Assembly: GCA_030694465.1 (NCBI GenBank)
Contig: JAUXYJ010000103.1
Location: forward strand, 1-27,056
DNA: 27,056 nucleotides
Reading direction: 5' to 3'
Source of the DNA: Deltaproteobacteria bacterium
GTDB taxonomy: Bacteria; Myxococcota_A; Polyangia; Polyangiales; Ga0077539
Shown here: positions 3,538 through 24,086 of the stretch, one piece after another
Numbering within the stretch: the stretch's first letter is position 1
Layout of the letters: the number at the start of each line of letters is the position of its first letter
Translations under genes and position numbers: made by a program
The notes under the pieces: generated by a model
What the model saw: the letters and a program-made list of their open reading frames with translations, nothing else
Database searches by the model: none
What the model was told of the DNA's origin: nothing

Positions 3538-4926
3538 CTACTCGCTCGGCTCGTCCTCGTCGTCACCGCTCCGCCGGATCCCCAGGGCGCGCATCTTTTT
3601 GTAAAAATGCGACCGCTCGAGCCCTAAATCACGTGCCGCGTGCGTGGCGTTTCCCTTGTGGTGATCGAGCGCGCGCTGGACGAAGTCTCGCTCGGCGCTC
3701 TCGGTCATTTCGCGCAGCGACAAGCCCGGTCGGTAATACCCATCGGCGCTCGCACCCGCAGAGCCTCCGGTGACCGCGCGCACGTCGTGCTCATCGATCA
3801 CGTCGTGGGTCGTGAGAATCACCAAGCGCTCGACGAGGTTCTTGAGCTCGCGCACGTTGCCCGCGAACGACTGCTTGGCCAACAAGGTCATGGCCGAGGG
3901 CTGGATGCTCTTGAGCGAGCGATCATTGGCCTCGCAGCTCGCGGGCAAAAACGCCGAGACCAGCAGCGGCACATCTTCGCGTCGCATCCGCAACGGCGGA
4001 ACGTGAATGTTCAGCACGTTGAGCCGATCGTACAAATCCGCGCGAAATCGCCCGGTACTCACGTCACTCACGAGGTCTCGATTGGTCGCCGCTACGATGC
4101 GCACATTCACCTTGTGGACCTCGTGCCCGCCCACGCGCTCAAGCTCGCCTTCTTGCAGCACCCGCAGGAGCTTGGCCTGCATCGCGGCGGGCATGTCTCC
4201 CACCTCGTCCAAGAACAGCGTGCCCCCGTGCGCGCGCTCGAATTTGCCCCGACGCAACCGCGCTGCGCCCGTAAAAGAGCCGGCCTCGTGGCCAAAGAGC
4301 TCGCTCTCGATGAGCTCTGCGGGGACGGCTGCGCAGTTGAGCTTCTCAAGCGGCCCCTGCGCGCGCTTAGAGCCCTCGTGAACCGCCCGCGCGACGAGCT
4401 CTTTGCCGGTGCCACGCTCGCCCGTGACCAGCACGGTGGCGTTGGCGTTGGCAGCGAGACGCACGCGCTCGCGCAGCTCGCGCATGGTGCTGCTGTCGCC
4501 CAAGAGCCCCGAGCCTACGCCGGTCAATCGCCTGAGCTTCTTGTTCTCGGCCGAGAGCCGCACGAGCTCGAGCGTGTTGGCGATCGTGAGCAAGAGCTTG
4601 TCGGTCGAGAGCGGCTTCTCAAGAAAGTCCTGCGCGCCCAGCCGCGTCGCTGACACCGCGGTCTCGATGGTGCCGTGCCCAGACATCACGATCACCGGGG
4701 TATCAATGCCCTGTGCACGCGCGCGCTCGAGCACCGCGAGGCCGTCTAAGCCCGGGAGCTGCACGTCCATCAAGACAAGGTCATGCGCACGCGAGCCCAT
4801 GCGATCAAGCGCGCTGGGCCCGTCGACCGCAGAGTCTACGTCGTAGCCCTCGACTTTGAGCGCACTGCGAATGGTACGAACGATATTCGGCTCGTCGTCC
4901 ACAACCAGAATGGATGCACGTCCCAC
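3538..4926 (-). CDS. Sigma-54-dependent transcriptional response regulator (NtrC/AtoC family): receiver, AAA+ sigma-54 activation domain and a Fis-type HTH
   Basis: Receiver ILVVDDEP...DLVLMDVQLPGLDG. Walker A GERGTGKE, the GAFTGA-type loop ESELFGHEAGSFTGA, and LFLDEVGDM. C-terminal HTH ATHAARDLGLERSHFYKKMRALGI. The ORF track extends to 4965 (GTG). GTG at 4926 is the more plausible start, six residues ahead of ILVVDD. Confidence 0.85.
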   Translation of the reverse strand: MGRASILVVDDEPNIVRTIRSALKVEGYDVDSAVDGPSALDRMGSRAHDLVLMDVQLPGLDGLAVLERARAQGIDTPVIVMSGHGTIETAVSATRLGAQDFLEKPLSTDKLLLTIANTLELVRLSAENKKLRRLTGVGSGLLGDSSTMRELRERVRLAANANATVLVTGERGTGKELVARAVHEGSKRAQGPLEKLNCAAVPAELIESELFGHEAGSFTGAARLRRGKFERAHGGTLFLDEVGDMPAAMQAKLLRVLQEGELERVGGHEVHKVNVRIVAATNRDLVSDVSTGRFRADLYDRLNVLNIHVPPLRMRREDVPLLVSAFLPASCEANDRSLKSIQPSAMTLLAKQSFAGNVRELKNLVERLVILTTHDVIDEHDVRAVTGGSAGASADGYYRPGLSLREMTESAERDFVQRALDHHKGNATHAARDLGLERSHFYKKMRALGIRRSGDDEDEPSE

Positions 4927-4996
4927 AAGCGTCAGTGTATGCGACAACGCCCGCTCGCCACGCACACTCTTTGCAACCGCTCACCCATTGTCCGCG

Positions 4997-7858
4997 ATGA
5001 ACGCACGCACCCTCGCCGCCCTCGCTCTCGCTGGCGCCGCCTCGCTCGCCGCCGAATCGCTCGGCGCGGTGCTCTTGCGCCCCGCCCTGGGCGCGGGCTC
5101 ACTCACGTCCGCGGCCATGGTCGCCGCGGCCCTCGCGGGGCTCGCCACCGGCGCACTGATCGCCCTTCGTGCGCACAAGCACCAGCGATTTCGCTGGCTA
5201 AGTGCACACGGCCCGAGCGCCCTCTTGGGCACCCTCGCCCTCGCCACTCTGGCCCTCCCGCGCGCCCTCCCTGCCCTGGCCACGGTGATCGCCCCTGCCC
5301 TGTACGCGGTCCCCTCGGCCCTGCGCGCTGCCCTCGCGGCCCTGTGCGTCCTGCCCCTGACCACCCTGTCCGGGGCAGCGTTTTCGCTCCTCGCCGCACG
5401 CACCGACGACCGCGCATCTGAGCGCACGGCCCTCGCGTCGGCCGCTTCGTCCATGGGCTCGGCGCTGGCCTCGTTGCTCTTGCTCGCCTGGGCGGCGCCC
5501 ACCCTCGGGGCCCTGCACACGCTCGACCTCGCGGCGGTTCTCTTCGCGCTCTCTGCTCTTTGTGCGCACACTTCGCTTGTAGATTTGCAGCTCGAATCAG
5601 CAGTTGACCAAGCGCCGACGGTCCGCACTCCCCACGCGATCGCGGCGATCCTCGCGCTCGTGGGCTTTGCCTCGATCACCGTGCAGCTCGCCGTCTTGCG
5701 CGTGCTCCAGCTCGCGTTCGCCCCGACGATCGTAGCGTTTGCCGCGACGCTCGCGGGTCACACCCTCGCCCTCGCCCTCGGAGAGATCGCGACCCTCGCG
5801 TGGCTCAAGCGAAAATCCCTGACAATTCACAGCACAAGTGAGCACGCCAGTCTCCGCGTAGCCATTGCGCTCCTCGTCTTCGGTGCCCTGCTCAGCACCT
5901 GGCTCTCGCGCGCGTTTCCCTTTGCGGTCGCGAGGATGATCTCCGTCAGCGGCGTGTCGTTTGAGCGCATGTTAGCTGCAGCATTTGTGTGCGCGCTCGT
6001 TATCTCGCTCATCCCCATGGGTGCGGTAGGAGCAACACTGTCTCTCTCAGCGCGCAGTGTTGCTCCTGGCGCAACACAGGCCACCCCGCGCGCGGTGCTA
6101 TGGCTCGCCGTGGGCAACACGCTCGCAGCCCTCGTCGCGCCCGCGATGCTCATGCCACGGGTGGGACCGCAGGGGCTCATGGCCGCGAGCGCCCTGTGCG
6201 CGATGCTCGCACTTGGCCTGCATATTCACAGAACAGAATCACTCGGTGCCCGCAAAACAACGCTAGCCCTCGCCCTCGCGTTTACCCTCGGCGCAGCCCA
6301 GCTCGCGCGCACCGTCGATGGGCACACGCTCACCAGCGCGCCGTCGCTCTACACCGCGCAGACCTCGCTCGGGACCCTCGCCTCGATTCGGCACGAGCCC
6401 CTGGCCACCGTGTCCATCCGCAGAGACTCTAGCGGCGAGATCGCCCTGCAAATCGACGGAAAAATCGACGCGACCGCCCTCGGAGATGCCCCCACCCAGA
6501 CCCTCCTTGGGCTCATCGCGCCCACGCTCGTCGCGCGCCCCACGCGCGCGCTGGTCTTGGGCCTCGGCTCGGGTCAGACCGTGCAGGCCCTACGCGCGGT
6601 CCCGGGAGTCTCACACGTCCGTGTGATCGAGCGCCTCGAGGGCGTCATCGCGGCCGCGCAGGGGCCCTTTGCGCAGAGCAACGGAGACGTCCTGCGCCAA
6701 GCCAACGTCGAGCTTGTACGCGACGACGCCATGCTGGTCTTGCGGGCGAGCCCGGCGCGCTACGACGTGATCGTGTCCGAGCCGTCTAACCCGTGGGTGT
6801 CGGGCATGGCGGCGCTGTTTACCGAGCAATTTTTCAGGCTAGCGAGAGAGCGGCTCACCGACGGAGGCGCGATGGCCGTGTGGTTTCACGGCGGAGACAG
6901 CGCGCTCACTGCGTCGATTTGCGCCACGTTTGTCAGCGTGTTCGCGAGCGCGGCCCTCGTCGAGCTGGATGCCCGCGGCGACTGGATGCTCTTGGGCTTC
7001 GCGCGGCGCCCCTCGCTCGACGTCGACGCCATGCAGCGACGCTTCGAGGACCCGTCGCTCGAGGCCCTGCGTGCTCGCGCCGAGACCCCTGATTTGGCCA
7101 CGCTCTTGGGCCGCTTTGTCGCAGGTCCCGAGGGCCTCAGGGCCATCTCGGCGTCGGGTGAGGTGCTGCAACAAGACGCGCTTTACTTGGAGTTTCGCGG
7201 GCTCCGCGCAGGCGATGGCCCGCTCGCTGCGATGGCGCTGGTGCAGCGCGCGCAAGACCTCCCGCTCGCCGGACTCGGCGCACACGGTCGCGCGCTCACG
7301 ACCCTCTTGGACGACGCGAGCGCGTCCCGCGAGGCAGGGATGCACGCACGACAACGCGAGTCGCTCTTTGCGCGCGGAGCCCTCGATCAAGCCCTGCGCG
7401 AGGGCGAGCTCGCCGTGGCCGCCGCGCCTCACAACGAGAGCCACCGCCATGCGCTCGCGAGGCTCTATCTCCGCAGGGCGCTGCTGCGCAAACGTGGGGG
7501 CGAGCTCGGGAGCGCCATCGACGACTTGCGCAGCGTGTTAGAGAGCCACGGACAGCCACAAGACACATTTCGAGCAGCAGTTTTGCTCGCCGAATGGCGC
7601 GCAGGGACCATCGATCCGCTGGGCACCATGCGCGCACTTGAGCGCGCGATCTCGGTCGCGGACGCGATGCACGCGCGTATCCCGGGCATTCGGCTGACGC
7701 AAGCGAGGCTCAAGGCGTCGATCGGCGACTACGTCGTGGCGCGCGCGCTCATTGAGCAAGCGGGGCGCGAGTGCGACACGGACGCGACCTGTGCTGCGGT
7801 CCAGACGCTGCGGCGCGAGCTCAACGCGGTGTCACCGGCCGAGACTCACGCACCCTAG
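4997..7858 (+). CDS. Fused membrane protein: N-terminal polytopic (MFS-like) domain, a spermidine-synthase-like (PABS/SpeE fold) domain and C-terminal TPR-like repeats
   Basis: ATG at 4997 (MNARTLAALALAGAASLAA) avoids overlap with the divergent regulator. More than ten hydrophobic helices. PABS-like motifs LVLGLGSGQT, DVIVSEPSNPWVSGMAALFTEQFF and GGAMAVWFHG. The C-terminus is helical and repeat-like (ALARLYLRRALL...). Confidence 0.75.
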   Translation: MNARTLAALALAGAASLAAESLGAVLLRPALGAGSLTSAAMVAAALAGLATGALIALRAHKHQRFRWLSAHGPSALLGTLALATLALPRALPALATVIAPALYAVPSALRAALAALCVLPLTTLSGAAFSLLAARTDDRASERTALASAASSMGSALASLLLLAWAAPTLGALHTLDLAAVLFALSALCAHTSLVDLQLESAVDQAPTVRTPHAIAAILALVGFASITVQLAVLRVLQLAFAPTIVAFAATLAGHTLALALGEIATLAWLKRKSLTIHSTSEHASLRVAIALLVFGALLSTWLSRAFPFAVARMISVSGVSFERMLAAAFVCALVISLIPMGAVGATLSLSARSVAPGATQATPRAVLWLAVGNTLAALVAPAMLMPRVGPQGLMAASALCAMLALGLHIHRTESLGARKTTLALALAFTLGAAQLARTVDGHTLTSAPSLYTAQTSLGTLASIRHEPLATVSIRRDSSGEIALQIDGKIDATALGDAPTQTLLGLIAPTLVARPTRALVLGLGSGQTVQALRAVPGVSHVRVIERLEGVIAAAQGPFAQSNGDVLRQANVELVRDDAMLVLRASPARYDVIVSEPSNPWVSGMAALFTEQFFRLARERLTDGGAMAVWFHGGDSALTASICATFVSVFASAALVELDARGDWMLLGFARRPSLDVDAMQRRFEDPSLEALRARAETPDLATLLGRFVAGPEGLRAISASGEVLQQDALYLEFRGLRAGDGPLAAMALVQRAQDLPLAGLGAHGRALTTLLDDASASREAGMHARQRESLFARGALDQALREGELAVAAAPHNESHRHALARLYLRRALLRKRGGELGSAIDDLRSVLESHGQPQDTFRAAVLLAEWRAGTIDPLGTMRALERAISVADAMHARIPGIRLTQARLKASIGDYVVARALIEQAGRECDTDATCAAVQTLRRELNAVSPAETHAP

Positions 7859-11222: not shown

Positions 11223-12593
11223 TTACGCGGCCGCCGACTGGGTGGCCTCTGGGGCGCTCTTGGTGCCACGCGAGAGGTCTGCGCGCGTGGGCAACTCGAT
11301 CACAACGCGCGCTCCGCCGTTGGGAGTGTTCTCTGCGCGCACTGAGCCACCGTGCGCCTCGGCGATGCGTCGCACGAGCGAGAGCCCAAGCCCGACCCCG
11401 CGTGCCTCGCTCTCGCGTGCACGTTGGCCGCGATAGAAAGCCTCGAACACGCGCTCGCGGTCATCGTGGTCAAACCCATCGCCTTCGTCCTCGACGGCAA
11501 ACGCGATGGTGTCTCTCGCGGCGCCCTCGCTCACCCGAAGAATCACGGTTCCGCGGCCATATTTGCGGGCATTGTCGAGCAGTGCGCCGAGCGCGCGCGA
11601 GAGCAGCGTAGGGTCTGCGTGGACCACATTGAGGGTGCTGTCCATCTTGACCGCTTCGCTCGGGAGGCTCGCGCGATCTGCGGCACGCTCTGCCACTTCG
11701 CGTGGGTCCAACGCGCGCCGCGAGAGCGCAGAGAACTCTAGCCGTGCGCTCGCCAAGAGCTCACCCACGAGCGAGTCCATCTCGAGCACCTCGGCCTCGA
11801 TCTCATCGAGCGGGTCTTTGCCGCTGCCCGGCGCGCTGCCGTCGCGAGCCATCTCGAGCAAGATCCTGACGCGGGCGAGCGGTGTGCGCATTTCGTGCGA
11901 AACTGCAGCCAAAAGCTGCCTCTGCTCTTTGACTTGGCGCTCAATCCGCGTGGCCATCTCGTTGATCGCGCGCGTGAGCTCGCCGACCTCGCCTGGGTGC
12001 GTGTGACAGAGGTTTGCCCGACGCGAGAGGTCGCCTTCGCCGAGCGCTTGCGCGACGCGTGTGAGCTCTTCGATGGGGCGCGACAAGCGATGTGCGACCT
12101 TGTTTGAGATCGCCCAGAGCATCAATCCGCCTGCCAAAAGTGTGATCAATGTGCGCCAGGGCGCGCCCTGCATGCGGGTCCGTGTGAGCGAGATCTCGAC
12201 GGTGCCCAGCGCGTGCCCTTCGCGATCTCGCACCGCGGTTGTCCAGTGGGGCACGAGGCCACCGAGGCCGCGCGCAAAGCCGTGCTCGGTGATCACTTGG
12301 CCACGGAGGTCACGCACGCGCACACCAAATCCGAGGTCTTGCCCATACGAGCGCGCGAGCTCGTCGCGGCCCGCAGAGTCATCCCAGACCCGCGCGAATC
12401 CTGCAGAGACAAAGCGCTCAACGCGCGCGCGCTCTGAGCGAATCGAGGTCTCGGGCGAGGCCACCATGTGCATGGACATGGCCACGGTGAGCGTGGTCAT
12501 CACGATGGCCACGCCGAACCACGCGAACAGCCGGCGATGGAGCCGTGCGCCCAGGTAGCAGCGAAGGCTGGGCATGGGTTTGGTGGGCATCAT
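11223..12593 (-). CDS. Two-component sensor histidine kinase (two TM helices, HAMP, HisKA, HATPase_c)
   Basis: H-box LAAVSHEMRTPLARV. N/G boxes VEDEGDGF and GVGLGLSLVRRIAEAHGG. TM helices are present. The start codon ATGATG overlaps the TGA stop of the regulator gene. Confidence 0.9.
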   Translation of the reverse strand: MMPTKPMPSLRCYLGARLHRRLFAWFGVAIVMTTLTVAMSMHMVASPETSIRSERARVERFVSAGFARVWDDSAGRDELARSYGQDLGFGVRVRDLRGQVITEHGFARGLGGLVPHWTTAVRDREGHALGTVEISLTRTRMQGAPWRTLITLLAGGLMLWAISNKVAHRLSRPIEELTRVAQALGEGDLSRRANLCHTHPGEVGELTRAINEMATRIERQVKEQRQLLAAVSHEMRTPLARVRILLEMARDGSAPGSGKDPLDEIEAEVLEMDSLVGELLASARLEFSALSRRALDPREVAERAADRASLPSEAVKMDSTLNVVHADPTLLSRALGALLDNARKYGRGTVILRVSEGAARDTIAFAVEDEGDGFDHDDRERVFEAFYRGQRARESEARGVGLGLSLVRRIAEAHGGSVRAENTPNGGARVVIELPTRADLSRGTKSAPEATQSAAA

Positions 12594-13288
12594 GGGTCTC
12601 CTTGGGCGGTGTCGCGCGCGAAGACATAGCCTACGCCGCGCACGGTCTTGATGAGCTTGGGTGCACGCGAATCGTCGCCTAATTTGGCTCTCAAGTGCGA
12701 GACATGCACGTCCACGGTGCGCTCGCCCACGACCACGTCGTCGCGGCCCGCGAGGGACAAGAGGGCGTCGCGAGGGACGACCTTTCCGGCGCGGCGCGCG
12801 AGCGCCAAGAGCAGGTCAAACTCGAGCCCTGTGAGGTCCAGATCGCGGCCTTCGAGCTTGGCTTGTCGTGAGCCGACGTCGATGTTGACCCCCGCCACGG
12901 TGATGTGTTCTCGGGAGCTGTCGGGCATCACGCGGCGAAGAACAGCACGGATTCGAGCCAGCAATTCACGCGGTGAAAATGGTTTGGCCAGGTAGTCATC
13001 GGCGCCGAGCTCGAGGCCCACGACGCGGTCGGTTTCGTCTCCGCGCGCGGTGAGCATCACGATGGGCACAGTGCTCTTGCCACGGATGCGTCGACACACC
13101 TCGAGCCCATCGATGCCGGGCATCATGATGTCGAGCAGCACGATGTCGTACGAGCCGCGATCGAAGGCCTCGATGCCCTTGAGGCCATCGGCGGCGCGCG
13201 TCACCAGCACACCGTTCTGTGTGAGATACGTGGCCAAAAGGTCCGAAAACCGGGGGTCGTCGTCAATCAAAAGGGCTCGCACTGTCAT
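12590..13288 (-). CDS. OmpR/PhoB-family two-component response regulator
   Basis: Receiver ALLIDDD...DIVLLDIMMPGIDG...LTARGDETDRVVGLELGADDYLAKPF. Winged-helix C-terminus TVRGVGYVF. Confidence 0.9.
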   Translation of the reverse strand: MTVRALLIDDDPRFSDLLATYLTQNGVLVTRAADGLKGIEAFDRGSYDIVLLDIMMPGIDGLEVCRRIRGKSTVPIVMLTARGDETDRVVGLELGADDYLAKPFSPRELLARIRAVLRRVMPDSSREHITVAGVNIDVGSRQAKLEGRDLDLTGLEFDLLLALARRAGKVVPRDALLSLAGRDDVVVGERTVDVHVSHLRAKLGDDSRAPKLIKTVRGVGYVFARDTAQGDP

Positions 13289-13364
13289 CGCGGTTCTGGA
13301 GAGTGTACGTCACTGCGCACGCTGCACACTCTCCGAGTGCAGCGTGCGCGCGGGCCACAAGCGG

Positions 13365-13577
13365 CTACTGCGTCACAGGACGAACACGGAGCGCGGGAGC
13401 CTGTGCCGTAGCCTCAAGCGCCGCGGTCGCGCACCTCCGCGCCATGTCATTGCGCGTAGCCTCTTGCATCGCTTGATGCTGTGCGCGCCTGTGTTTTAGC
13501 TGGTGAAACCCACTTGAGTAGCCACCCACAACGCCGAGGGCCAAGAGCCCCATGAGAATCTTTCGAGCCATAAACAT
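13365..13577 (-). CDS. Small (about 70 aa) single-pass membrane protein, co-operonic with the two-component system
   Basis: ATG with an AAGGAG Shine-Dalgarno 5 nt upstream (complement of 13578-13592). TM helix KILMGLLALGVVGGYSSGF. GC3 is lower than in neighbouring genes, so confidence is moderate. Confidence 0.4.
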   Translation of the reverse strand: MFMARKILMGLLALGVVGGYSSGFHQLKHRRAQHQAMQEATRNDMARRCATAALEATAQAPALRVRPVTQ

Positions 13578-13628
13578 TGTCACTCCTTCGAGAAAAACGT
13601 GGTTGATCCAGACCGAGACCCTGCAGGG

Positions 13629-14204
13629 CTATCCGCGGTAGGGCCCGCGAGGTCCGTGGTGGCCAAAGGGCCCACCGCGTCCGCCACGTCCGCCGCGAAA
13701 ACCCCACGGCCCTTCGGCGATGAGCTCGGCGAGCGTCTCTCGCTGATGGCCATCGAGCGCCTCGTGGACCTTGCGAAGTGAGTCTGTGATCACCTCATGG
13801 AGCGCATGCATGGACTGCTGATGGGACTGCTGCGCGGTGACAATCGCGGCCTCGTCAAAGACCTCTCCACGCACGGCGCGCGCGAGATCTTCACGAGACG
13901 CACGCACCGATTGCCAAGCATTTCGCAGGGCTTCGCGGTGCGCTTCAAAAGCCGCGATCATCACTTTTTCTTGTCCTGGCGTCGTGTCCAAGCGCTCAAA
14001 GAGCATGCGAAGCATCCAGCGCTCACGGGGGTGGGCGCCGGGGCCCCAACCACCCCACGGGCCGTGATCGCCGTGGCCGCGATGTCTGTCATGACCGCAG
14101 TGACCTTTGCCGCAACCGCCGCGACCGCAGCGTCCACGACGGCCTCCGAAAGAGAGCTTGGCGAGGGCCATGAGGCAGAGTGTTCCGAAGATAAATCCGC
14201 ACAT
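13629..14204 (-). CDS. Periplasmic CpxP/Spy/ZraP-like (LTXXQ / heavy-metal-resistance family) protein with a His-rich N-terminus and a Gly/Arg/His-rich C-terminus
   Basis: Signal/anchor MCGFIFGTLCLMALAKLSFGG. Two LTxxQ-like motifs (RLDTTPGQEKVM and LDGHQRETLAEL). His-rich GHCGHDRHRGHGDHG. C-terminal GFRGGRGGRGGPFGHHGPRGPY. It is the first gene of the operon containing the OmpR-type RR and the HK, the classic envelope or metal stress arrangement. Confidence 0.5.
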   Translation of the reverse strand: MCGFIFGTLCLMALAKLSFGGRRGRCGRGGCGKGHCGHDRHRGHGDHGPWGGWGPGAHPRERWMLRMLFERLDTTPGQEKVMIAAFEAHREALRNAWQSVRASREDLARAVRGEVFDEAAIVTAQQSHQQSMHALHEVITDSLRKVHEALDGHQRETLAELIAEGPWGFRGGRGGRGGPFGHHGPRGPYRG

Positions 14205-15409: not shown

Positions 15410-15643
15410 ATGGCTGACACACTGAAAAAAGGCTCAAAGGGCGACAGCGTCAAGGCACTTCAAGAGAAGCTCGGGATGCTGGGCTACACGCTCGCGGCAG
15501 ACGGCGATTTTGGCAACGGCACCGAAGACGCAGTCCGCCAACTCCAGAAGTCCTTTGGCTACACCGTCGACGGCATTGTGGGCGACGGCACCATGTTTCT
15601 CGTCGACCAGCAGCTCGGCCTCGGCTGGAAGGCCAACGGGTAA
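15410..15643 (+). CDS. Small standalone peptidoglycan-binding (PG_binding_1) domain protein
   Basis: GDSVKALQEKLGMLGYTLAADGDFGNGTEDAVRQLQKSFGYTVDGIVGDGT matches the PG_binding_1 consensus (G..V..LQ..L...GY....DG.FG..T..AV..FQ...GL..DG.VG..T). GA-rich RBS GAAGAAGAG upstream of the ATG. Confidence 0.65.
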   Translation: MADTLKKGSKGDSVKALQEKLGMLGYTLAADGDFGNGTEDAVRQLQKSFGYTVDGIVGDGTMFLVDQQLGLGWKANG

Positions 15644-16406: not shown

Positions 16407-16450
16407 CGCGCAGCACGCAGAGTTCGCGCTCGGATGCAGCCGACCGAAGA

Positions 16451-16508
16451 CATAGTCTGTCACTCGTTTTGTCTGCAAATTCGGACGCAAACGCTGTGAC
16501 AGACTATG
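16451..16508. repeat. Long imperfect hairpin: 13-bp perfect inverted repeat CATAGTCTGTCAC / GTGACAGACTATG extended by CGTTT/AAACG, enclosing an approximately 22-nt loop
   Basis: Read directly, between the B3/4 gene stop (16406) and the next plausible ATG (16556). Confidence 0.5.
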
Positions 16509-16555
16509 ACTGCAATCACTTCTCATCAGGCAAAACACTAGCGCATGATCCACTC

Positions 16556-16897
16556 ATGAACGCAGCCACGAAGCACTCGACCAGCACCACCTCTGCCCGC
16601 TCGACCCAGTCCATGCAGGTCCTCTCGTTGGTGCGTGTCGCGAGCACCCAGCGCAACCGTCGAGCCTCTTCGGTGCCTGCACGCGATCACCGTGGCAGCG
16701 CGCTTCACACCCTCGTGGGGTTTGCGCTGGGCGCGATGATCACGCTCGCTGTGATGTTGGCACACACGCTCGCGCCTACGCTCCGCGCGCTCTCGACCAG
16801 CACGCTCTTGCTGCCCATCGCGTGTGTGATCGGGGCGTGTCTCGTGCGCACCCTTGAGCGCGCTACGACCCAGCGTTATCGCAGCTCGACCGCGTAG
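16556..16897 (+). CDS. Possible small two-TM membrane protein
   Basis: ATG (MNAATKH...) inside ORF 16469-16897. Hydrophobic segments LVGFALGAMITLAVMLA and LLLPIACVIGACLV. It is convergent with the pseudokinase gene and overlaps its stop by about 20 nt. Weak support. Confidence 0.25.
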   Translation: MNAATKHSTSTTSARSTQSMQVLSLVRVASTQRNRRASSVPARDHRGSALHTLVGFALGAMITLAVMLAHTLAPTLRALSTSTLLLPIACVIGACLVRTLERATTQRYRSSTA

Positions 16898-19197
16898 TCG
16901 GTGTCCCAGGTCTCGTGCACAAAGGTAGGGAGCGCTACGGTGCGCACGGCAGCCTCGACACAAGCCCCAAGGGGGGTGTTGTGCAGGGCGGGACCAAAGA
17001 GCTCGACGCGCGCCACTTGGCCTGTCGAACCGGTAAACTGCACGGCAAAACGCGCCGTCATCGGCGCCGCGGGGTGACACCGAGCGCTCACACGGACCTG
17101 CATCGCGCGGCGAGCGTTTCCGCGCACGCGCCAATGCGGCGTCTGCTCGCCGTTGTGTCCGTCGACGCGCAAAAGGCCGTCTTCGGGCGACGGCGAAGCG
17201 TCTTCGGGCTCGACCGCAGGGCCTGCGTCTTCGGGCGCGCTGGGCGTGGGTTCGGGTAGCGCCACAGCAGCATCGGCGACCTCTGGCGTGGGCTGCGGCT
17301 CGGCGGCGTCTTGAGGCTCGGCGACCAAGGGAATTTGCAGGGCGTTTGCGTCTTCGCTGGCCTCGGAAGCGGGCTCCGTCACCGCGCCTGCGTCCTCGGT
17401 CAGCCCCGTGAGCGGGGGCGATCGCGGCGGATTGACCGAAGGGACCCCATTGAGCTTCGAGAACAAGAACGCGCCCCCGGCGATGCCGCCTACGAGCCCG
17501 ACGATCGCAGCCAAGACCACCACCATCGGACGCTTGGAGCCACGCGCGGCGTCCGGCGCTGCCCTCGCCGCAACGGGCACTGAGGGGCGCTTGGGCGCGA
17601 TGGGCATCGGCACCGGAATCCCCATGTCAAACAGTGGCGGCACCTCAATGTGCTCGCTGACGGCAGGGGACAACTCGACGCTGATCCCTGGCACCTCAAG
17701 GTCCATGGCGATGGCTGGAGCGTCGTCGTCCTCGGGATCGTGGCCCACTTCGAGCGCCGGGGGAGCGTCCGCCAGAGGGACCGGCCCCGGACTCTTAGAA
17801 GACCCAGAAGTGCTTGAAACTACAGGAAATTCTAAGATCTCATCTGTGACCTTCGGGTCTAGCGTGTCGAGGTCAATGTCAGTCAACTCAACCGAGTCAA
17901 CTGGGTCTTCGTCCTCGACGAGGTCAGCGAACAGCGCGGCGTCTGTCCGCTCGGTCTTCTCGGTCTCGAGAGGGCTGCTGGCCGCGATCGGGACGGACAG
18001 CACAGCGCTAGGAGGCCCGCTCATGGGCTCTAGCCCCAGCGACTCGGGCGCGATGCCCATGAGCGTCGATTTGCTCGCTCGCAAGGCCGGCCGAAGGGGC
18101 GGCATCGAGGGTGGGTGTCGTGCAGAGTCGGAGGGAGCCACTTCGGGAGCGGGAGCGTCGGCCGCAGCGACAGGCGCGACGCCCCTGAGAGTCGTGGTGG
18201 TCGAGACCTCTGGCGCCTCACTGGCGGACTTCGTCGCGCTCGCGAGGCTCGATGCGCTCGGGGATTTCGTTGCGCTCGCGAGGCTTGATGCGCTCGGGGA
18301 TTTCGTTGCGGAGGAGGGCAACGAGGGAGCGCGAACGGGCGATGGGATCGAGAGTTCGGGCACCGAAGGCGTGCGTGAAGAGGACTTAAGCCCCGAAATC
18401 GAAGGCGCCGCGGTGAGCGCTGCCGACAGCGCCTGGGCAAAGCTTAGACAGCTCGGAAACCGCGCCACGGGGACACTCGCCGTGGCACGCGCGAGGACAC
18501 GCGCGAGGGGCGTCGCTGCCGGGACGGGCGCGAGGAGCACTTCGGCCAATTGTCCAAGCGCGTAGCGGTCGGAGGCGGGCTGCGGCGAGCGGCCGGCGAC
18601 GTCTTCGGGTGCACGAAACGTCGCCTTGATTTGGGCCGCTTCGTGGACGTCTTCGACGCGCGCGGCAAGAAGAGCAGCAGCGAATCCCGCGTCAAGAATG
18701 CGGGGAGCGCGTGTTACGCGGTCGACGCGAATGGTGTCCAAGGACAGCAACAAGTGCACGATGGGCGGGCTGAGCGCGTGCATGGCGTCCATCGCTTCGC
18801 CCACCGCGCGGATGATCTCTAGCGCCTCTGCGCGAGGCAGCGAGCCCTCTTCGTCAAGCACCTCGCGCAAGGTGGGGCCATCCACCCACGAGGTCACAAT
18901 GACCGGAAATCCCATCTCGACGCCCGACGCGAGCAGCTTTGGGATGTGCGGAATACTGACCTTCGCGAGCCACTGCGAGCGTCGCGCGAACGCGTCGATG
19001 TACGCCGCGCTAGGCGCATCCGAGCGCAGCGTGGTGATGGAGACAATCTCGGTCTGGCGCTCGGTGTGATGACCGCGATAGGAGACCCAGGCTTCCGTCG
19101 CGTAGGCCTGCGCCTCTACGAAGTACTCACCCGCTACGACGTAGCCAGCGGGAAGGGTCCAGCTCGCATCCGAGTTCGTGACAGACATCGGCTGCAT
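16876..19197 (-). CDS. Membrane-anchored Ser/Thr protein kinase-like protein, probably a pseudokinase: N-terminal degenerate kinase domain, Ser/Ala/Pro low-complexity linker with a 12-aa tandem repeat, one TM helix, and a C-terminal extracytoplasmic Cys-containing domain
   Basis: The kinase-fold region has an APE motif (FRAPEDV) but lacks the G-loop and the VAIK Lys. It has HLLLSLDTIRV in place of HRDLKPEN and DAG in place of DFG. TM helix MVVVLAAIVGLVGGIAGGAFLF. The C-terminal domain is of unknown family. Confidence 0.7.
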   Translation of the reverse strand: MQPMSVTNSDASWTLPAGYVVAGEYFVEAQAYATEAWVSYRGHHTERQTEIVSITTLRSDAPSAAYIDAFARRSQWLAKVSIPHIPKLLASGVEMGFPVIVTSWVDGPTLREVLDEEGSLPRAEALEIIRAVGEAMDAMHALSPPIVHLLLSLDTIRVDRVTRAPRILDAGFAAALLAARVEDVHEAAQIKATFRAPEDVAGRSPQPASDRYALGQLAEVLLAPVPAATPLARVLARATASVPVARFPSCLSFAQALSAALTAAPSISGLKSSSRTPSVPELSIPSPVRAPSLPSSATKSPSASSLASATKSPSASSLASATKSASEAPEVSTTTTLRGVAPVAAADAPAPEVAPSDSARHPPSMPPLRPALRASKSTLMGIAPESLGLEPMSGPPSAVLSVPIAASSPLETEKTERTDAALFADLVEDEDPVDSVELTDIDLDTLDPKVTDEILEFPVVSSTSGSSKSPGPVPLADAPPALEVGHDPEDDDAPAIAMDLEVPGISVELSPAVSEHIEVPPLFDMGIPVPMPIAPKRPSVPVAARAAPDAARGSKRPMVVVLAAIVGLVGGIAGGAFLFSKLNGVPSVNPPRSPPLTGLTEDAGAVTEPASEASEDANALQIPLVAEPQDAAEPQPTPEVADAAVALPEPTPSAPEDAGPAVEPEDASPSPEDGLLRVDGHNGEQTPHWRVRGNARRAMQVRVSARCHPAAPMTARFAVQFTGSTGQVARVELFGPALHNTPLGACVEAAVRTVALPTFVHETWDTDYAVELR
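18229..18310. repeat. 36-bp tandem direct repeat, 2.3 copies with two mismatches, inside the pseudokinase linker; it encodes ATKSPSASSLAS twice
   Basis: TTCGT(C/T)GCGCTCGCGAGGCT(C/T)GATGCGCTCGGGGAT repeated. Read directly. Confidence 0.7.
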
Positions 19198-19255
19198 CGT
19201 AGTCCTTCACGATGCGACTCGTGAAGCGTGCAGTGATGTCTTGGTGACGATGGTG

Positions 19256-20626
19256 TCAGTGCGTGACCGCCGCTGTAGGGGCAACGGATCGCGGACCGAC
19301 GTACCGCAGCGGGGCCCCATCACGGGGACCAAAAGTGATCCCTCGGCGAACCGAAACCTCTGCAGTATGACTGGCCAACTCAAACGTGTGCCTTCGAATG
19401 AGTTCGGCCAAGACCTGCTTCATTTCGTACATCGCGAACGCCGCACCCACACAGCGTCGGTGCCCTCCGCCAAAGGGTAAGAACTCAAACGGCGAGAATT
19501 TTCGCTGCAAAAATCGCTCAGGCACAAAGCCCTTGGGGTCAGGATAGAGCGTGGGGTCTTCGTGAATCGTCGCGATCGAGACGCTCACGGCAAACCCGGC
19601 GGGGACCACCATGTTGCCGATCGTGAGGGGTTTTTCGAGTCCGCGGACCACATCGATGACCACGGGGTGCAGCCGCAGGGTCTCGCTGCAGACCGCGTCG
19701 AGGTAGGGCAGCGCGGCGATGGCCTCTGCGTCCGCGTGGGGCGCGAGCCCATCAAGCTCGGCACGCAATCGCCTCAGCGTCATGGGGTTGTCGTGCAGCA
19801 GCCACATCGCCCACGCGATCGAGATCGCGGTCGTCTCGTGCCCGGCGAGCAAGAGCGTCAAGAGCTCGTCTCGAAGCTCCGCGTCCGAGAAGCTGCTCCC
19901 ATCGTCGTAGCGCGCTTGCATCATGAGCGAGAGCACATCGTCGCCGTAGTGCTTCTCTTCGCGACGCCTGTGAATTTCCTGATAGATCTTGCTATCCACA
20001 GCAGCGCGCGCTTTTGCAAAATGTGCCCACGGTCCCAGCCCAAACGGCGCGACGCGCAGGGCCTTAAAGAACATCAGCGCGGGTGTCCCCGACTCCATCA
20101 TCGTGGTCACCAGGCGCGTCCATTCGTGCATGACCTCGCTGTCTTGTGCCCCAAACACCGTGCGCAAGATCACCTCGAGAGAGATCTCTTGCGCGGACTG
20201 GAGCATGCGCACCACGCTCCCCTCGCTCCAGCGCCCGCTCGCGTTCACCGCGGCCTGACGCATCACCTCGGCGTAACCCCGCATGCGCGCGCCGTGCAAC
20301 GGCGGAGTCAACAGCTTGCGATCACGACGGTGACGCTCACCGGACACCAGCAAGAGCGACATGGGGCCCACGATGGGATCCAGCGCGTCGGCGCCCCATA
20401 CGGCCAAGGTGTCGGGGTCTGCGGTAAAGACCGCACGCGCGTGCTCGGGCGTACTGACCACGACGAGCGGCCCTCGGAGCGTCTGGAGCAAGAACGGCGA
20501 GCCATAACGCTGGTGATTCTTGCGATAAAATCCCGACGCATCACGGAGATACTGCAGCGTGACAAAGAAGCGAGGGTCCTTGGGTCCCTCAAAGGACCGA
20601 GCGCTTTGCGATTGCATGAGTGACAA
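19256..20626 (-). CDS. Cytochrome P450 monooxygenase
   Basis: I-helix LLLAGHETTA, ExxR ETLRLHP, PERF, and the haem-binding loop FLPFGGGHRRCVGAAFA (FxxGxRxCxG). Confidence 0.9.
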   Translation of the reverse strand: MSLMQSQSARSFEGPKDPRFFVTLQYLRDASGFYRKNHQRYGSPFLLQTLRGPLVVVSTPEHARAVFTADPDTLAVWGADALDPIVGPMSLLLVSGERHRRDRKLLTPPLHGARMRGYAEVMRQAAVNASGRWSEGSVVRMLQSAQEISLEVILRTVFGAQDSEVMHEWTRLVTTMMESGTPALMFFKALRVAPFGLGPWAHFAKARAAVDSKIYQEIHRRREEKHYGDDVLSLMMQARYDDGSSFSDAELRDELLTLLLAGHETTAISIAWAMWLLHDNPMTLRRLRAELDGLAPHADAEAIAALPYLDAVCSETLRLHPVVIDVVRGLEKPLTIGNMVVPAGFAVSVSIATIHEDPTLYPDPKGFVPERFLQRKFSPFEFLPFGGGHRRCVGAAFAMYEMKQVLAELIRRHTFELASHTAEVSVRRGITFGPRDGAPLRYVGPRSVAPTAAVTH

Positions 20627-20704
20627 ACTTTCTCAGTGGGCGGGAGGGCATTCTCGCGAGAGAGAGACAGAGGGTCTGCGCGACCCTCGCGCAAGGTACC
20701 TCTG

Positions 20705-22114
20705 TCAGCGCGCGATCGTCACGCGCGGGAGCGAATGGACCGAGAGCCAAATCACAGGCAGATCGTTCTCGCTCTGCGCCGAGAGCACGCGGGCGAGCGC
20801 TTGTTCGCCCACGTCCATGAGCCCCGCGAGGACCCTGTTGCGTGTGCGAGGGATGTACCCAAGCATCTCAGCGCGCGAGGTCTTGATCGCGATCGCGCGG
20901 TCGTCGTGCGTGTTTTGCCTCTCGCGCTCAAGCACGAGCGCGTCGCCCTCGGCGAGCGAACCCAGCGCAGCACGCGCCTGGTGAAACTGAGCTCCCGCCA
21001 CCGAGCACTCGAGCACCGCGACCGGGCGCGGCGCGACAGGCCACGTGAGGGTGTGATCTTCGGGCAGCCACGGAGTGCATTCTCTCACTGAAATCGCAGT
21101 GACATCGTCACCACGCTGGTGCCGCAATTGGTCCCCCACACGGAGCCCTAGCGAGGCCAGCGCGACGTCGCCGTGTCTGCGCCCAACGCCCTCGGACCAC
21201 GAGAGGTCAAAGCGCGTTTGTCGCACCCATTCGGCCAGCGAGAACACGCTCGCGACGCCTTGATGCTCGGCAGAGGGGTGCTCGCTCTGCAATCGCCCGA
21301 TGAGCATCTCGAGGTGCGCCAGCGTCTGCGCTCCGCGGAGCCACACGGTCCCTAGGAGCGCGCGCTCTCGCTGCATCTGAGAGAGCGCAAAGAGGTAGGC
21401 TCCTTGCGGGTGGTCCCAGCAATAATCCATACGATCGGCTTCTAAGAGCGTCCGCGCGACCACCCGCGGCGCGAGCACTGGGTCGTGCTGTGCCATGCGG
21501 TGTAGCGCGCTCGCCGTGGCCATCGGAGCGCCCCGCTGCGCGAGCCGATGCGCGGCCAATAAGTATACCGCGGCGGCGCTTCGGATGTCTCCGCGAGGGT
21601 GCTCAAGCGCGCCACGGAGCGCACGCTCGGCTCGCCCCTCGGCGACCCCCGCGGCGGTCCACGCGAGGGCAGCGAGCGAGTACACTCTGCGCTCGCCCGC
21701 GAAGTCTTCACCGAAGGCATTTCGCCTGAGGATTTGCTCCCAAAAGGCAACCTTCTCGGCATCATCGTCTCGCTGCATGCCGAGCAGACAGAGAAACTGC
21801 CGCTCAAGCCAGGGCTCATCGACCGGCGCGTCCACCGCATAGCGCGCGCCGAGCCACGAGAGCAAAAGATCGCGCTCTTCGTCTCGCGTCTGCACGACGT
21901 GCGGTGTGGGCCCCAGTCCCAGCGACACGAGGTCCTGTTGGCGCAATCGGTCCTGCAAAAACGCAGGCCGTTGCACCCGATGCTGGTGCGCACGCTCGTA
22001 GCTCTTGAGCGCCGTCATCGCGCGCCGGACGTCACGCCCCGCGGTAGAGATCACGTGGCTGGGTTCGCGCGCGGCGCGGTGCCACAGGCTGAGTGGGTCA
22101 TGCGCGAGTTGCAT
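20705..22114 (-). CDS. Protein with a C-terminal HIRAN domain and an uncharacterised alpha-helical N-terminal region of about 370 aa
   Basis: C-terminus VAGAQFHQARAALGSLAEGDALVLERERQNTHDDRAIAIKTSRAEMLGYIPRTRNRVLAGLMDVGEQALARVLS matches the HIRAN pattern (G.........L..G..L.L.RE..N..D.nAI.v......lGYiPr..a..La.l.D.g). The N-terminal part matches no family I recognise. Confidence 0.6.
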   Translation of the reverse strand: MQLAHDPLSLWHRAAREPSHVISTAGRDVRRAMTALKSYERAHQHRVQRPAFLQDRLRQQDLVSLGLGPTPHVVQTRDEERDLLLSWLGARYAVDAPVDEPWLERQFLCLLGMQRDDDAEKVAFWEQILRRNAFGEDFAGERRVYSLAALAWTAAGVAEGRAERALRGALEHPRGDIRSAAAVYLLAAHRLAQRGAPMATASALHRMAQHDPVLAPRVVARTLLEADRMDYCWDHPQGAYLFALSQMQRERALLGTVWLRGAQTLAHLEMLIGRLQSEHPSAEHQGVASVFSLAEWVRQTRFDLSWSEGVGRRHGDVALASLGLRVGDQLRHQRGDDVTAISVRECTPWLPEDHTLTWPVAPRPVAVLECSVAGAQFHQARAALGSLAEGDALVLERERQNTHDDRAIAIKTSRAEMLGYIPRTRNRVLAGLMDVGEQALARVLSAQSENDLPVIWLSVHSLPRVTIAR

Positions 22115-22189
22115 TGCCTTCGTAGACCACTAGCACACGCGCGAGAGCGAGCGCAGGGACCATGGTCAGGCTATGTCACAACCAATCCA

Positions 22190-22236
22190 CCTGTGAATTC
22201 ACTGTACAAATACGGACAACCGGAGCGATTCACAGG
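22190..22236. promoter_or_regulatory. 9-bp inverted repeat CCTGTGAAT ... ATTCACAGG (29-nt spacer) overlapping a 10-bp palindrome GTGAATTCAC, in the 115-bp low-GC spacer upstream of the HIRAN gene
   Basis: Read directly. The second arm overlaps the stop codon of the upstream peroxidase-lipoprotein gene (22230). Confidence 0.35.
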
Positions 22237-24086
22237 GTCTCGAGGTACGAGACCAGCTCGTCGAGCTGTGTGCCGTTAAGGTGCGCGGTACGACCATGGC
22301 GTTCGCCGCCGCCGCACTGCGGGTCAGAGAACCTCGCGCGCAGCGTTGCGGCGCAGCCGTTGTGCATAAAGGGCGAGCGCCACGCGAGGCCGCGCAGCGA
22401 GGGGACCTGAAACGCAGCTCCAGTCCCTACGTCTACGGTCTGGTTGTTGGTCCCTTGAGCGCCACCGTGGCAGCTTGCGCAACCGACAACGGGGTCGTGA
22501 AAGAGCGTCTGTCCACGCGCTGCGACGGGGTCCATGGCGCGCATGGGCGCACGTGCTGGGAGGCGATCGATCCAGCCTTGGAGCGCCGCCACCTGGGGCT
22601 GGTCGAGGATGGGACCGCTCATTCGCTCAGAGAAAACGCTGCTCATCAGGTGCGAGATGCTCTGCATGTCGCCGTCCCAGTGAAAGGGCTCGGTGCCGCT
22701 CAGGCCGCCGCGAAAGGCCTGCGTGCGGCGAGGGCCGATCGAAGCGAAGTTCCATACGCGGCCGTCTTCGTCGCCTTCGGCGTGACAGGACGCACACGCG
22801 AGCCCGCTGCCCGAGTCCGAGTGAAAAATCGTGAGCCCCGTGTCGTTACGAGAGTCACGCGAGAGCGCGATCGTGCGGTTTGTACCGGGCAAATAGAGCG
22901 CCGCCGGCTCGCGAAGCTGCAACACCACGGCCTCGCCCACGAAGGCCACGGCCGTCGCCTGGCCCGGGAGGCTCCGAGGCATCAAGTTCTCATGACCGAT
23001 ACAGTTCAAGCGCTCGGTAAGCCCCGCGCCAGGATGAACCATCACCTGCGAGTGCGACGCAACGCGCGCGTTGCCTGGGATCGCAAACGCGAGCGTCCCC
23101 AGCGACGAGACCGCGACATCCACCGCGAGGACGGCGTCCACGATGGGGCTGTCGCCGCTGACCACTGCGGGCCTCTCGCTGCCGTTCGTCGAGAACACGC
23201 TGACGGCGCTCTCGACAATCCCACCCGAGCCACACTGCCTCCCAGTGCCACCGTAACCGCCCTGAACAATTGAGATTTCTTTATCGAGCGCGCGCTGGTG
23301 GACCATGACCACTTGACCGTTGAGTCCGGCCACCATGCGCCACGCGGTCGACGGCTCAGCACGCGCAGGGGCGACGGGCTGAGATGCGCCGCCACGGTCT
23401 TCGATCGTTGGAGAAAAGCCCGAATTCCGCTCAAAGGTCGTCGGCGCGACGGGATCCAGCGCGCGGCCTTCTGCGGTCACCGTGATCACTTTGGCGGACC
23501 GAAACTGCGTCACCAACAGGCGTCCATCAGGCAACGCGACGATGTCTCGGAGGTCTTGTGCGAGCTTGAGGCTGCGTGTGACGGCGCCGCTCTGGGCCTC
23601 CATCGACACGAGCTCACCGCCTGCGCACGCAACATGGACGAGGTCGTGCGCGCGGTCGTACGCGATTCCGCGAGGAGAGACACAGACCTCTCGGCGGCTC
23701 ACGACGCTCCCCGCCGAGGGATCGACGACCGCGACGGCGCCTGCACCGCGCAACACCACGTGCACATGACCTCGGAGGTCTTCGACGCTGCGGCCAGGCT
23801 CATCGCCCGCACGCAACGCGATCTGACGCACGGCTTGGGCCTGGGAGAGGTCCGCGACGAAGACCGCGTCACGCTCGGGATCGGCCGCAAGCGCGAGGCC
23901 GCTGGACAGAATCTGTAGTGTTCCGCCAGAGATCGGGACCGCACGATGGCGCGTGCTCACCGTGGCCCCGAGCACAGGTTGGGAGCCTGGCCGAGTGAGC
24001 TGAGGCGGCGTCTCTTGGATCACAAGATTGCAGCCAATGAGCCCAACGAGCGAGAGAGCAACAAGGAGCCTAGGGGGGTGCGTCAT
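22230..24086 (-). CDS. Lipoprotein with N-terminal YVTN-type beta-propeller repeats and a C-terminal di-haem cytochrome c peroxidase (CCP/MauG family) domain
   Basis: Signal peptide plus lipobox LVGLIGC. Two CxxCH motifs (CASCHAEGDEDG and CASCHGGAQG). A CCP-like distal region VPSLRGLAWRSPFMHNGCAATL. Propeller-like repeats VFVAD...VAVVDPSAGSVV...PRGIAYD. Confidence 0.8.
   Translation of the reverse strand: MTHPPRLLVALSLVGLIGCNLVIQETPPQLTRPGSQPVLGATVSTRHRAVPISGGTLQILSSGLALAADPERDAVFVADLSQAQAVRQIALRAGDEPGRSVEDLRGHVHVVLRGAGAVAVVDPSAGSVVSRREVCVSPRGIAYDRAHDLVHVACAGGELVSMEAQSGAVTRSLKLAQDLRDIVALPDGRLLVTQFRSAKVITVTAEGRALDPVAPTTFERNSGFSPTIEDRGGASQPVAPARAEPSTAWRMVAGLNGQVVMVHQRALDKEISIVQGGYGGTGRQCGSGGIVESAVSVFSTNGSERPAVVSGDSPIVDAVLAVDVAVSSLGTLAFAIPGNARVASHSQVMVHPGAGLTERLNCIGHENLMPRSLPGQATAVAFVGEAVVLQLREPAALYLPGTNRTIALSRDSRNDTGLTIFHSDSGSGLACASCHAEGDEDGRVWNFASIGPRRTQAFRGGLSGTEPFHWDGDMQSISHLMSSVFSERMSGPILDQPQVAALQGWIDRLPARAPMRAMDPVAARGQTLFHDPVVGCASCHGGAQGTNNQTVDVGTGAAFQVPSLRGLAWRSPFMHNGCAATLRARFSDPQCGGGERHGRTAHLNGTQLDELVSYLETL

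Follow-up and report, generated by a model that had tools for sequence, protein, structure and literature searches.

A conserved upstream box and a rare HEAT, MM3350-like and HIRAN domain fusion in a syntenic block of myxobacterial genomes

The stretch of DNA analysed here, referred to throughout as the window, comprises the 27,056 nucleotides of contig JAUXYJ010000103.1 from the Deltaproteobacteria bacterium assembly GCA_030694465.1. It includes three consecutive genes on the minus strand, for a HIRAN-domain protein, a cytochrome P450 and a membrane pseudokinase, which the initial annotation had proposed to form a novel operon. All three open reading frames (ORFs) are present as described, and their assignments are confirmed by Pfam and by alignment of the catalytic residues to PknB. 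The reported gaps of 78 and 58 nt are correct when counted from the first possible start codons, and become 87 and 67 nt if ATG 20617 is taken as the start of the P450 and ATG 19188 as that of the pseudokinase. As had also been claimed, classical terminators are lacking, with no terminator-like site in the gap between the HIRAN and P450 genes or in that between the P450 and pseudokinase genes. The three genes, the domains of the HIRAN protein and the elements upstream of its gene are as follows.

20705-22114, minus strand: HIRAN gene, predicting a 469-aa three-domain protein composed of a HEAT-like solenoid, an MM3350/PRiA4_ORF3-like domain and a HIRAN domain (ORF and AlphaFold2, AF2)
21425-22114, minus strand: N-terminal DPLxxW helix and HEAT-like helical repeats, aa 1-230
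21065-21412, minus strand: divergent MM3350/PRiA4_ORF3-like alpha/beta domain, aa 235-350
20720-21022, minus strand: HIRAN domain, aa 365-465
22165-22177, minus strand: conserved 13-nt box GACATAGCCTGAC with the consensus GWCATASNCTGWC, a candidate site for a transcription factor acting on the HIRAN gene, from a seven-locus alignment
22129-22135, minus strand: TGCTAGT, an extended -10-like box of the form TGnTA, at 14 nt from the HIRAN ATG, with a putative promoter function
19256-20626, minus strand: cytochrome P450, 456 aa, likely start ATG 20617 (Pfam E 2.8e-73, 247.7 bits)
16876-19197, minus strand: single-pass membrane Hanks-type pseudokinase, 773 aa, likely start ATG 19188 (Pfam and PknB alignment)
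18412-19188, minus strand: pseudokinase domain
17461-17529, minus strand: transmembrane segment of the pseudokinase
16879-17181, minus strand: conserved C-terminal domain of the pseudokinase

The C-terminal domain of the HIRAN protein matches Pfam HIRAN (PF08797) over aa 367-453 with an E value of 1.4e-14 and 54.1 bits against a curated cut-off of 24.7, and it has the HIRAN fold. The remainder had been described as unassignable alpha-helical sequence, but consists of approximately 230 aa of helical repeat and an alpha/beta domain at aa 235-350, and is homologous to proteins composed of HEAT and PRiA4_ORF3 domains. This homology surfaced solely through an all-against-all profile search. In Pfam at E ≤ 10, the N-terminal region gives one sub-threshold match (DUF480, E 0.12), and PF07929 (PRiA4_ORF3) is matched neither by the N-terminal 365 aa nor by five orthologues; the best E value in a profile search of the PDB is 0.24. 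Profile-profile alignment joins the N-terminus to the HEAT and PRiA4_ORF3 group over aa 4-355, including the DPLxxW motif, with a probability of 99.85%. When only the 10 close homologues were supplied, the AF2 model had a predicted local distance difference test (pLDDT) score of 62, falling below 50 at aa 215-374; 39 distant relatives were then added, and pLDDT reached 92 with a predicted template modelling (pTM) score of 0.91. The domain at aa 235-350 is PRiA4_ORF3/MM3350-like in both homology and fold. The signature motifs WDxDHLY and FDYGDxH are replaced, reading QGVASVF and RHQRGD-DV in the window protein.

Close homologues are few, forming 10 clusters at 90% identity that are all 453-474 aa long and all include HIRAN, together with two further divergent members. 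Searching 1.84 billion representatives with a profile built from the first 362 aa retrieved 117 proteins, and HIRAN is found in only four (P0001, P0008, P0011 and P0014) of those that were checked. The remaining matches are mostly ∼360 aa in length, and the sampled ones show Pfam HEAT_2 and PF07929. Across 50 aligned members, HIRAN is restricted to a single subfamily of 11 and is mutually exclusive with a Pfam PRiA4 match. The family is limited to myxobacterial metagenome-assembled genomes (MAGs) and is very rare, with 4 of 185,579 species-level genomes matching the two peptide patterns scanned; scans of genomes and metagenomes contributed few extra loci. Two neighbourhoods of ∼360-aa HEAT and PRiA4 relatives were inspected; one contains HTH, TPR and UPF0175 genes and gave no functional lead, and the other has nearly no annotated context. 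In the few papers found that mention PF07929, it figures only as a transposon accessory ORF or an annotation label.

Alignment of HIRAN motifs with those of HLTF by eye places F377, N401, H403, D404 and R423 opposite HLTF Y72, N91, Y93, D94 and K113, the 3′-end pocket residues of the 2015 HLTF HIRAN structures. Within the family, each of the five window residues is either invariant or conserved to 90% or more. Roles of the HLTF HIRAN residues are summarised in PMC8262856. The HIRAN protein contains no recognisable catalytic domain and, because of this, is most likely a non-enzymatic adaptor that would bind 3′ DNA ends. Its gene probably has a regulated promoter of its own. By analogy with HLTF, the HIRAN domain would hold a free 3′ DNA end, while the HEAT/MM3350 module would bind a protein partner or ligand, such that the 3′ end might be presented to, or reported through, that partner.

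The largest invariant non-coding block in the seven-locus alignment is TGACAT.G.CTG.C (11 of 14 columns, T72-C85), and lies upstream of the HIRAN gene. The GWCATASNCTGWC box is found at this position in all eight distinct lineages recovered, including L012 and L013, two loci that came under study only once the box was already defined; in L013 it is reversed. Three matches to the box occur in the window where 0.01 would be expected, and in ∼250 kb of related DNA it is found only upstream of HIRAN genes and at one other conserved place. A TGnTA(C/G) element follows a 15-nt frame of the box, at a distance of exactly 28 nt in five loci and of 27 nt in the window. In the two most divergent lineages, L012 and L013, the distance is 38 and ∼39 nt, respectively. 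This element is 12-16 nt from the start codon in the window, L002, L004, L005 and L010, 22 nt in L003 (to an in-frame TTG) and 35 nt in L012 (to an ATG). The spacing is consistent with a face-of-helix-dependent transcription-factor site phased to the -10-like TGnTA, in which case the 38-39 nt distances would correspond to one additional helical turn. The HIRAN gene would then form its own transcription unit, controlled by the box. The box and its surroundings were compared by eye with known elements. None of the sigma-70 -35/-10, sigma-54 (GG-N10-GC) and extracytoplasmic function (ECF)/RpoE-type promoters or CRP/FNR half-sites fits, nor do the LexA boxes of E. coli, Gram-positive bacteria, Myxococcus xanthus, Geobacter or Bdellovibrio.

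The other conserved place is a pair of boxes outside the interval considered in the initial annotation, which precedes a small gene.

16448-16511, no strand assigned: inverted box pair with 16-nt arms that are 94% complementary, separated by a 32-nt spacer (fold z -6.4 and -5.6)
16556-16897, plus strand: gene for a small 113-aa protein with two predicted transmembrane segments, 45 nt downstream of the box pair

None of 500 shuffled sequences attains the arm length of this pair. The small gene converges on the pseudokinase gene, with a 22-nt overlap at the 3′-end of the latter. In L010, the equivalent pair (20298-20360) carries a G-to-C change in both arms and has an unrelated spacer, and both the 45-nt spacing and the 22-nt overlap are the same. 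In L012, the orthologue of the small gene has two weaker sites ahead of it, which carry one and two mismatches, and it remains beside the B3_4 gene though the segment is inverted relative to the kinase gene. Because the box travels with both the HIRAN gene and the small gene, a shared regulator is suggested, and the two genes are probably under its common control.

Comparison of gene neighbourhoods is based on the eight lineages, represented by the window, L002/L009, L003/L011, L004, L005-L008/L016, L010, L012 and L013, all from myxobacterial MAGs. A tblastn map indicates that ∼25 kb around the locus keeps its gene content across these genomes, with local insertions and deletions and one inversion. 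The syntenic order is GNAT-Dus, then divergently DUF218, cytochrome c and HIRAN, followed by P450, pseudokinase, B3_4, LTXXQ and the response regulator/histidine kinase genes. The order HIRAN, P450, pseudokinase is seen in the window, and direct adjacency of the HIRAN and P450 genes occurs in this one lineage of the eight. In L004 and L010, HIRAN is followed by SRPBCC, DUF1214, sulfotransferase/SDR, P450 and pseudokinase genes. L003 carries the same run from SRPBCC to P450, where the available stretch ends, and here a group II intron has been inserted. The intron reverse transcriptase (RVT_1 and GIIM) is at 10278-11681 of L003, between SRPBCC and DUF1214. In L004 the P450 gene begins 10 nt after the sulfotransferase/SDR gene, and it therefore belongs with the SRPBCC-DUF1214-sulfotransferase/SDR run. 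The SRPBCC, DUF1214 and sulfotransferase/SDR genes are absent from the window, and the P450 gene would abut the HIRAN gene there only because these three intervening genes of the sister genomes are missing.

Other lineages depart further from a three-gene arrangement. The pseudokinase gene of L012 adjoins the HIRAN gene with a 69-nt gap, and neither a P450 nor a cytochrome c gene is present. The HIRAN gene of L013 is monocistronic, standing alone with opposite-strand genes on both sides, and opposite-strand genes are also the first downstream of HIRAN in L002 and L005. No P450 or pseudokinase gene is found within 10 kb downstream of the HIRAN gene in L002/L009. A conserved HIRAN-P450-pseudokinase operon is thus not upheld, as adjacency and order are not kept beyond the background synteny and the intervening content varies. 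The HIRAN and pseudokinase genes do often share a strand, as in the window, L004, L010 and L012, but this does not extend to a three-gene unit, given that P450 adjacency is confined to one lineage of eight. A complete lack of co-occurrence of HIRAN orthologues with a P450 or kinase had been named among the observations that would overturn the operon. Co-occurrence is in fact frequent, but cannot be distinguished from background synteny. Because the whole ∼25-kb block is syntenic, linkage of the HIRAN and pseudokinase genes is expected from vertical inheritance.

The P450 has the haem-thiolate loop FGGGHRRCVG, the I-helix motif AGHETT and the ExxR motif as ETLR, all read in the translation, and can thus be assigned as a P450. 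It is 68% identical to the P450 of L004, no named NCBIfam model reaches its cut-off, and the public record also calls the gene from ATG 20617.

The kinase-like domain of the third gene product gives a weak Pfam match (aa 48-221, E 7e-9), and the families matched are Pkinase and APH rather than HipA. Its description as a pseudokinase is borne out by alignment with M. tuberculosis PknB, in which the beta3 Lys is replaced by Thr, the alphaC Glu by Arg, HRD by HLL and the catalytic-loop Asn by Thr. The Asp of the DFG motif, here DAG, is the sole catalytic residue retained, and the protein, though it has the kinase fold, lacks the catalytic residues of an active Hanks-type Ser/Thr kinase. The degenerate catalytic loop H(Q/L)LLS is common to the orthologues from L004, L010 and L012, and the loss of catalysis is therefore old. 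A single hydrophobic segment is located at approximately aa 557-579. Ahead of it is a long linker rich in Pro, Ala and Ser, in which a 36-nt tandem repeat at 18226-18310 (2.4 copies, 93% matches) encodes SATKSPSASSLA repeats. The conserved C-terminal domain of ∼100 aa matches no family. A homologue search with the pseudokinase domain returned three remote kinases and missed the known orthologues, probably because the word index was saturated with kinases. In the pseudokinase, Met4 (ATG 19188) is the residue that corresponds to Met1 in the orthologues, and its ATG is preceded at 7 nt by a TACGAT box. A conserved TAC(C/G)AT box is found 8-10 nt before the pseudokinase start in L004 and L010, which suggests that the gene has its own promoter. 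The product is a conserved, catalytically dead, single-pass membrane protein that may be independently expressed.

Upstream of the HIRAN gene and on the same strand is a gene that was omitted from the initial annotation.

22230-24086, minus strand: cytochrome c gene, predicting a 618-aa lipoprotein (LIGC lipobox) with two CxxCH haem motifs and a CCP_MauG/cytochrome c-like C-terminus

This gene is directly upstream of the HIRAN gene in six of the eight lineages and absent from L012 and L013. The gap between the two genes ranges from ∼55 to 190 nt and is mostly ∼100-115 nt. The 115-nt gap in the window had been considered a low-GC promoter region; its GC content of 54.8% is indeed below the 65.2% of the window, but several other gaps in the window (49-56% GC) are equal or lower. 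The repeat structures that had been put forward as an operator in this gap and as attenuators in the two gaps downstream are the following.

22190-22236, minus strand: 9-bp inverted repeat and 10-bp palindrome, forming a hairpin that includes the cytochrome c stop codon at 22230-22232 (fold z -1.28)
19205-19226, minus strand: hairpin 1 with 8-bp arms, in the P450-pseudokinase gap (fold z -1.63)
20670-20688, minus strand: hairpin 2 with 7-bp arms, in the HIRAN-P450 gap (fold z -1.49)

The arms of the 9-bp repeat are at 22228-22236 and 22190-22198, the former containing the cytochrome c stop codon, and the palindrome is at 22193-22202. The repeats are only mildly unusual. Perfect arms of 9, 8 and 7 bp are attained in 7, 5 and 84, respectively, of 500 dinucleotide shuffles, and folding is ordinary for all three structures, with 12-19 of 200 shuffles folding equally well. 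Though the repeats of the supposed operator exist as had been stated, their sequence is not conserved in the orthologous gaps and folds like shuffled sequence. Both hairpins are likewise real, but hairpin 1 is not kept in L004, L010 or L012, and the junction that contains hairpin 2 is unique to this genome. Each locus with a cytochrome c gene bears a different and unrelated GC-rich hairpin, identified by eye, at or just after the stop codon of that gene. Such hairpins would fit a 3′-end hairpin of the upstream gene and not an operator; a test against chance, applied to the window hairpin, is not significant. Rfam gave no match in the window.

The other genes of the window are ordinary chromosomal genes, including those for an NtrC-type activator, ABC ATPases, an OmpR/HisKA pair with an LTXXQ protein, B3_4, Dus, GNAT and DUF218. 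The overall GC content is 65.2% with an even composition, and integrase and mobile-element genes are absent, indicating that the context is not a genomic island. A Cpx-like set at 11223-14204, composed of genes for an LTXXQ/Metal_resist periplasmic protein, an OmpR-family response regulator and a HAMP-HisKA kinase, is syntenic with L012. Between the DUF2325 and B3_4 genes is an unlisted 75-aa ORF (15410-15634) with a PG_binding_1 domain (E 3.5e-16), which is kept in L010 and L012. A 1000-aa ORF at 4856-7858 has as its sole match a weak one, similar to spermine/spermidine synthase (aa 560-673), and, as listed, it shares ∼110 nt at its 5′-end with the divergent ORF of the NtrC-type activator.

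The arrangement is therefore best read as three genes that probably do no more than lie side by side in a chromosomal block passed on by vertical descent in a Polyangiales-type myxobacterial genome, with the HIRAN gene forming its own transcription unit under the conserved box and the P450 and pseudokinase genes separate from it. Several points weigh against this. The HIRAN and pseudokinase genes are on the same strand in four to five lineages and are adjacent in L012, and a functional link between their products is conceivable. The gaps in the window are short and without classical terminators, and read-through co-transcription could occur in this genome. The orthologous loci all come from one clade of eight lineages and include several short contigs, which makes the neighbourhood statistics weak. 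The promoter and -10 assignments are drawn from agreement with consensus sequences, and for the box upstream of the pseudokinase gene the hand alignment disagrees with MAFFT.

Much of the same evidence could be taken to mean that HIRAN and the membrane pseudokinase form a true co-transcribed module in which the P450 is an optional accessory and an envelope signal reaches the DNA-end-binding protein through the pseudokinase. The same-strand linkage in the window, L004, L010 and probably L003, the direct adjacency in L012 with a 69-nt gap, the short window gaps free of terminator-like sites, and the presence of box-regulated genes on both sides of the block are all in keeping with such a module. 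As the ∼25-kb region is syntenic throughout, however, the linkage is barely informative, and from none to four unrelated genes, plus the group II intron of L003, separate the two genes. The HIRAN gene is also found without a pseudokinase gene within 10 kb in L002/L009 and is monocistronic in L013, and the TAC(C/G)AT box of L004 and L010 suggests a separate promoter for the pseudokinase. On balance, a co-transcribed module seems rather unlikely. Far less probable is that the locus encodes a HIRAN-plus-kinase system for anti-phage defence or of the toxin-antitoxin kind (HipN, HipL, PADLOC PDC-M03), an idea that the domain tests largely refute. PADLOC does match the HIRAN protein to PDC-M03B and the kinase-like protein to PD-T4-6, MAD6 and MkoA, and HIRAN-HipA kinase modules are on record (PMC8262856, PMC11706625), but the PADLOC matches reach no further than generic features, the HIRAN region at aa 366-454 in one protein and the kinase fold in the other. 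The kinase is Hanks-type, catalytically dead and not HipA, a HipS-like domain is absent, and the N-terminus of the HIRAN protein is instead HEAT and MM3350-like. With these domain assignments and a stable, syntenic block of even GC content that lacks mobile-element genes, the interpretation as a defence island was dropped.

For the box pair, the main competing explanation is that GWCATASNCTGWC represents an RNA hairpin or a repeat like the repetitive extragenic palindromic (REP) sequences and REPINs, serving, for example, in processing or termination, with a decayed singlet as the copy ahead of the HIRAN gene. REPINs typically show such a pattern of an inverted doublet accompanied by a singlet. 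At 16448-16511, the pair folds to a 13-bp stem with a z score of -6.4, and the G-to-C changes in both arms in L010 keep the pairing while the loop is wholly different. Single copies, on the other hand, form a stem of 4-6 bp at most, and the second site in L012 is degenerate, having two mismatches on either strand, so that no strong stem would form. The box is retained between genomes in which the HIRAN proteins are only 32-49% identical to that of the window, it has fixed distances to start codons (45 nt) and to the -10-like box, its orientation is flipped in L013, and no further copies are found in ∼250 kb of related DNA. A hairpin or REP-like origin is accordingly considered unlikely. If the box is a regulator site, as favoured here, it might define a small lineage-specific stress regulon, possibly the DNA-damage (SOS-type) regulon of this clade, in which the HEAT-MM3350-HIRAN adaptor would be produced together with a TisB-like protein with two transmembrane segments, and the pseudokinase encoded between them would be a functional partner of the HIRAN protein. 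This extension is speculative and, taken as a whole, distinctly doubtful.

The novelty that can be defended is a rare HIRAN fusion, of HEAT, MM3350-like and HIRAN domains, with a conserved control box. No description of this architecture was found in the searchable literature. The fusion provides a first contextual link between the uncharacterised PRiA4_ORF3/MM3350 family and DNA ends, and the box is a sharply defined cis-element common to two genes that offers a directly testable candidate regulator site. Because the family is so rare, the general impact is limited. An operon of the three genes would have linked DNA-end sensing to oxidative chemistry and membrane signalling, and the comparative evidence is against it. 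The locus instead illustrates that gene loss in single lineages can make part of a long syntenic block resemble a novel operon.

HIRAN had been regarded as rare in bacteria, but stand-alone bacterial (PDB 3K2Y), phage and HipA-kinase-linked (HipN/HipL) HIRAN proteins exist. Unlike HLTF and Rad5 (PDB 4S0N, 4XZF and 4XZG), the window protein has no SWI2/SNF2 ATPase or RING domain. In lp_0118 (PDB 3K2Y), HIRAN stands alone, whereas in the window protein it is C-terminal, behind the HEAT-like and MM3350-like module. Within the PRiA4_ORF3/MM3350 family (PF07929, PDB 2I1S), the closest relatives are the ∼360-aa proteins with HEAT_2 and PRiA4_ORF3, from which the window domain differs in that its motifs are replaced and it escapes detection by Pfam. 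The pseudokinase resembles myxobacterial and actinobacterial Hanks-type membrane kinases such as PknB (PDB 1MRU and 3ORM), which give the best N-terminal matches (E ∼1e-11), and shares their layout of cytoplasmic domain, transmembrane segment and extracytoplasmic domain. It differs in that the Lys, Glu, HRD Asp and Asn are replaced, in the orthologues as well, and its C-terminal domain is unmatched. In HIRAN-HipA kinase modules (PMC8262856, PMC11706625), namely HipN/HipL (PMC8262856), and in PADLOC PDC-M03, HIRAN is likewise encoded near a protein with a kinase fold. The locus described here differs in having a membrane pseudokinase of the Hanks type, not HipA, and in lacking a HipS-like domain; adjacency is inconsistent and the context is not an island.

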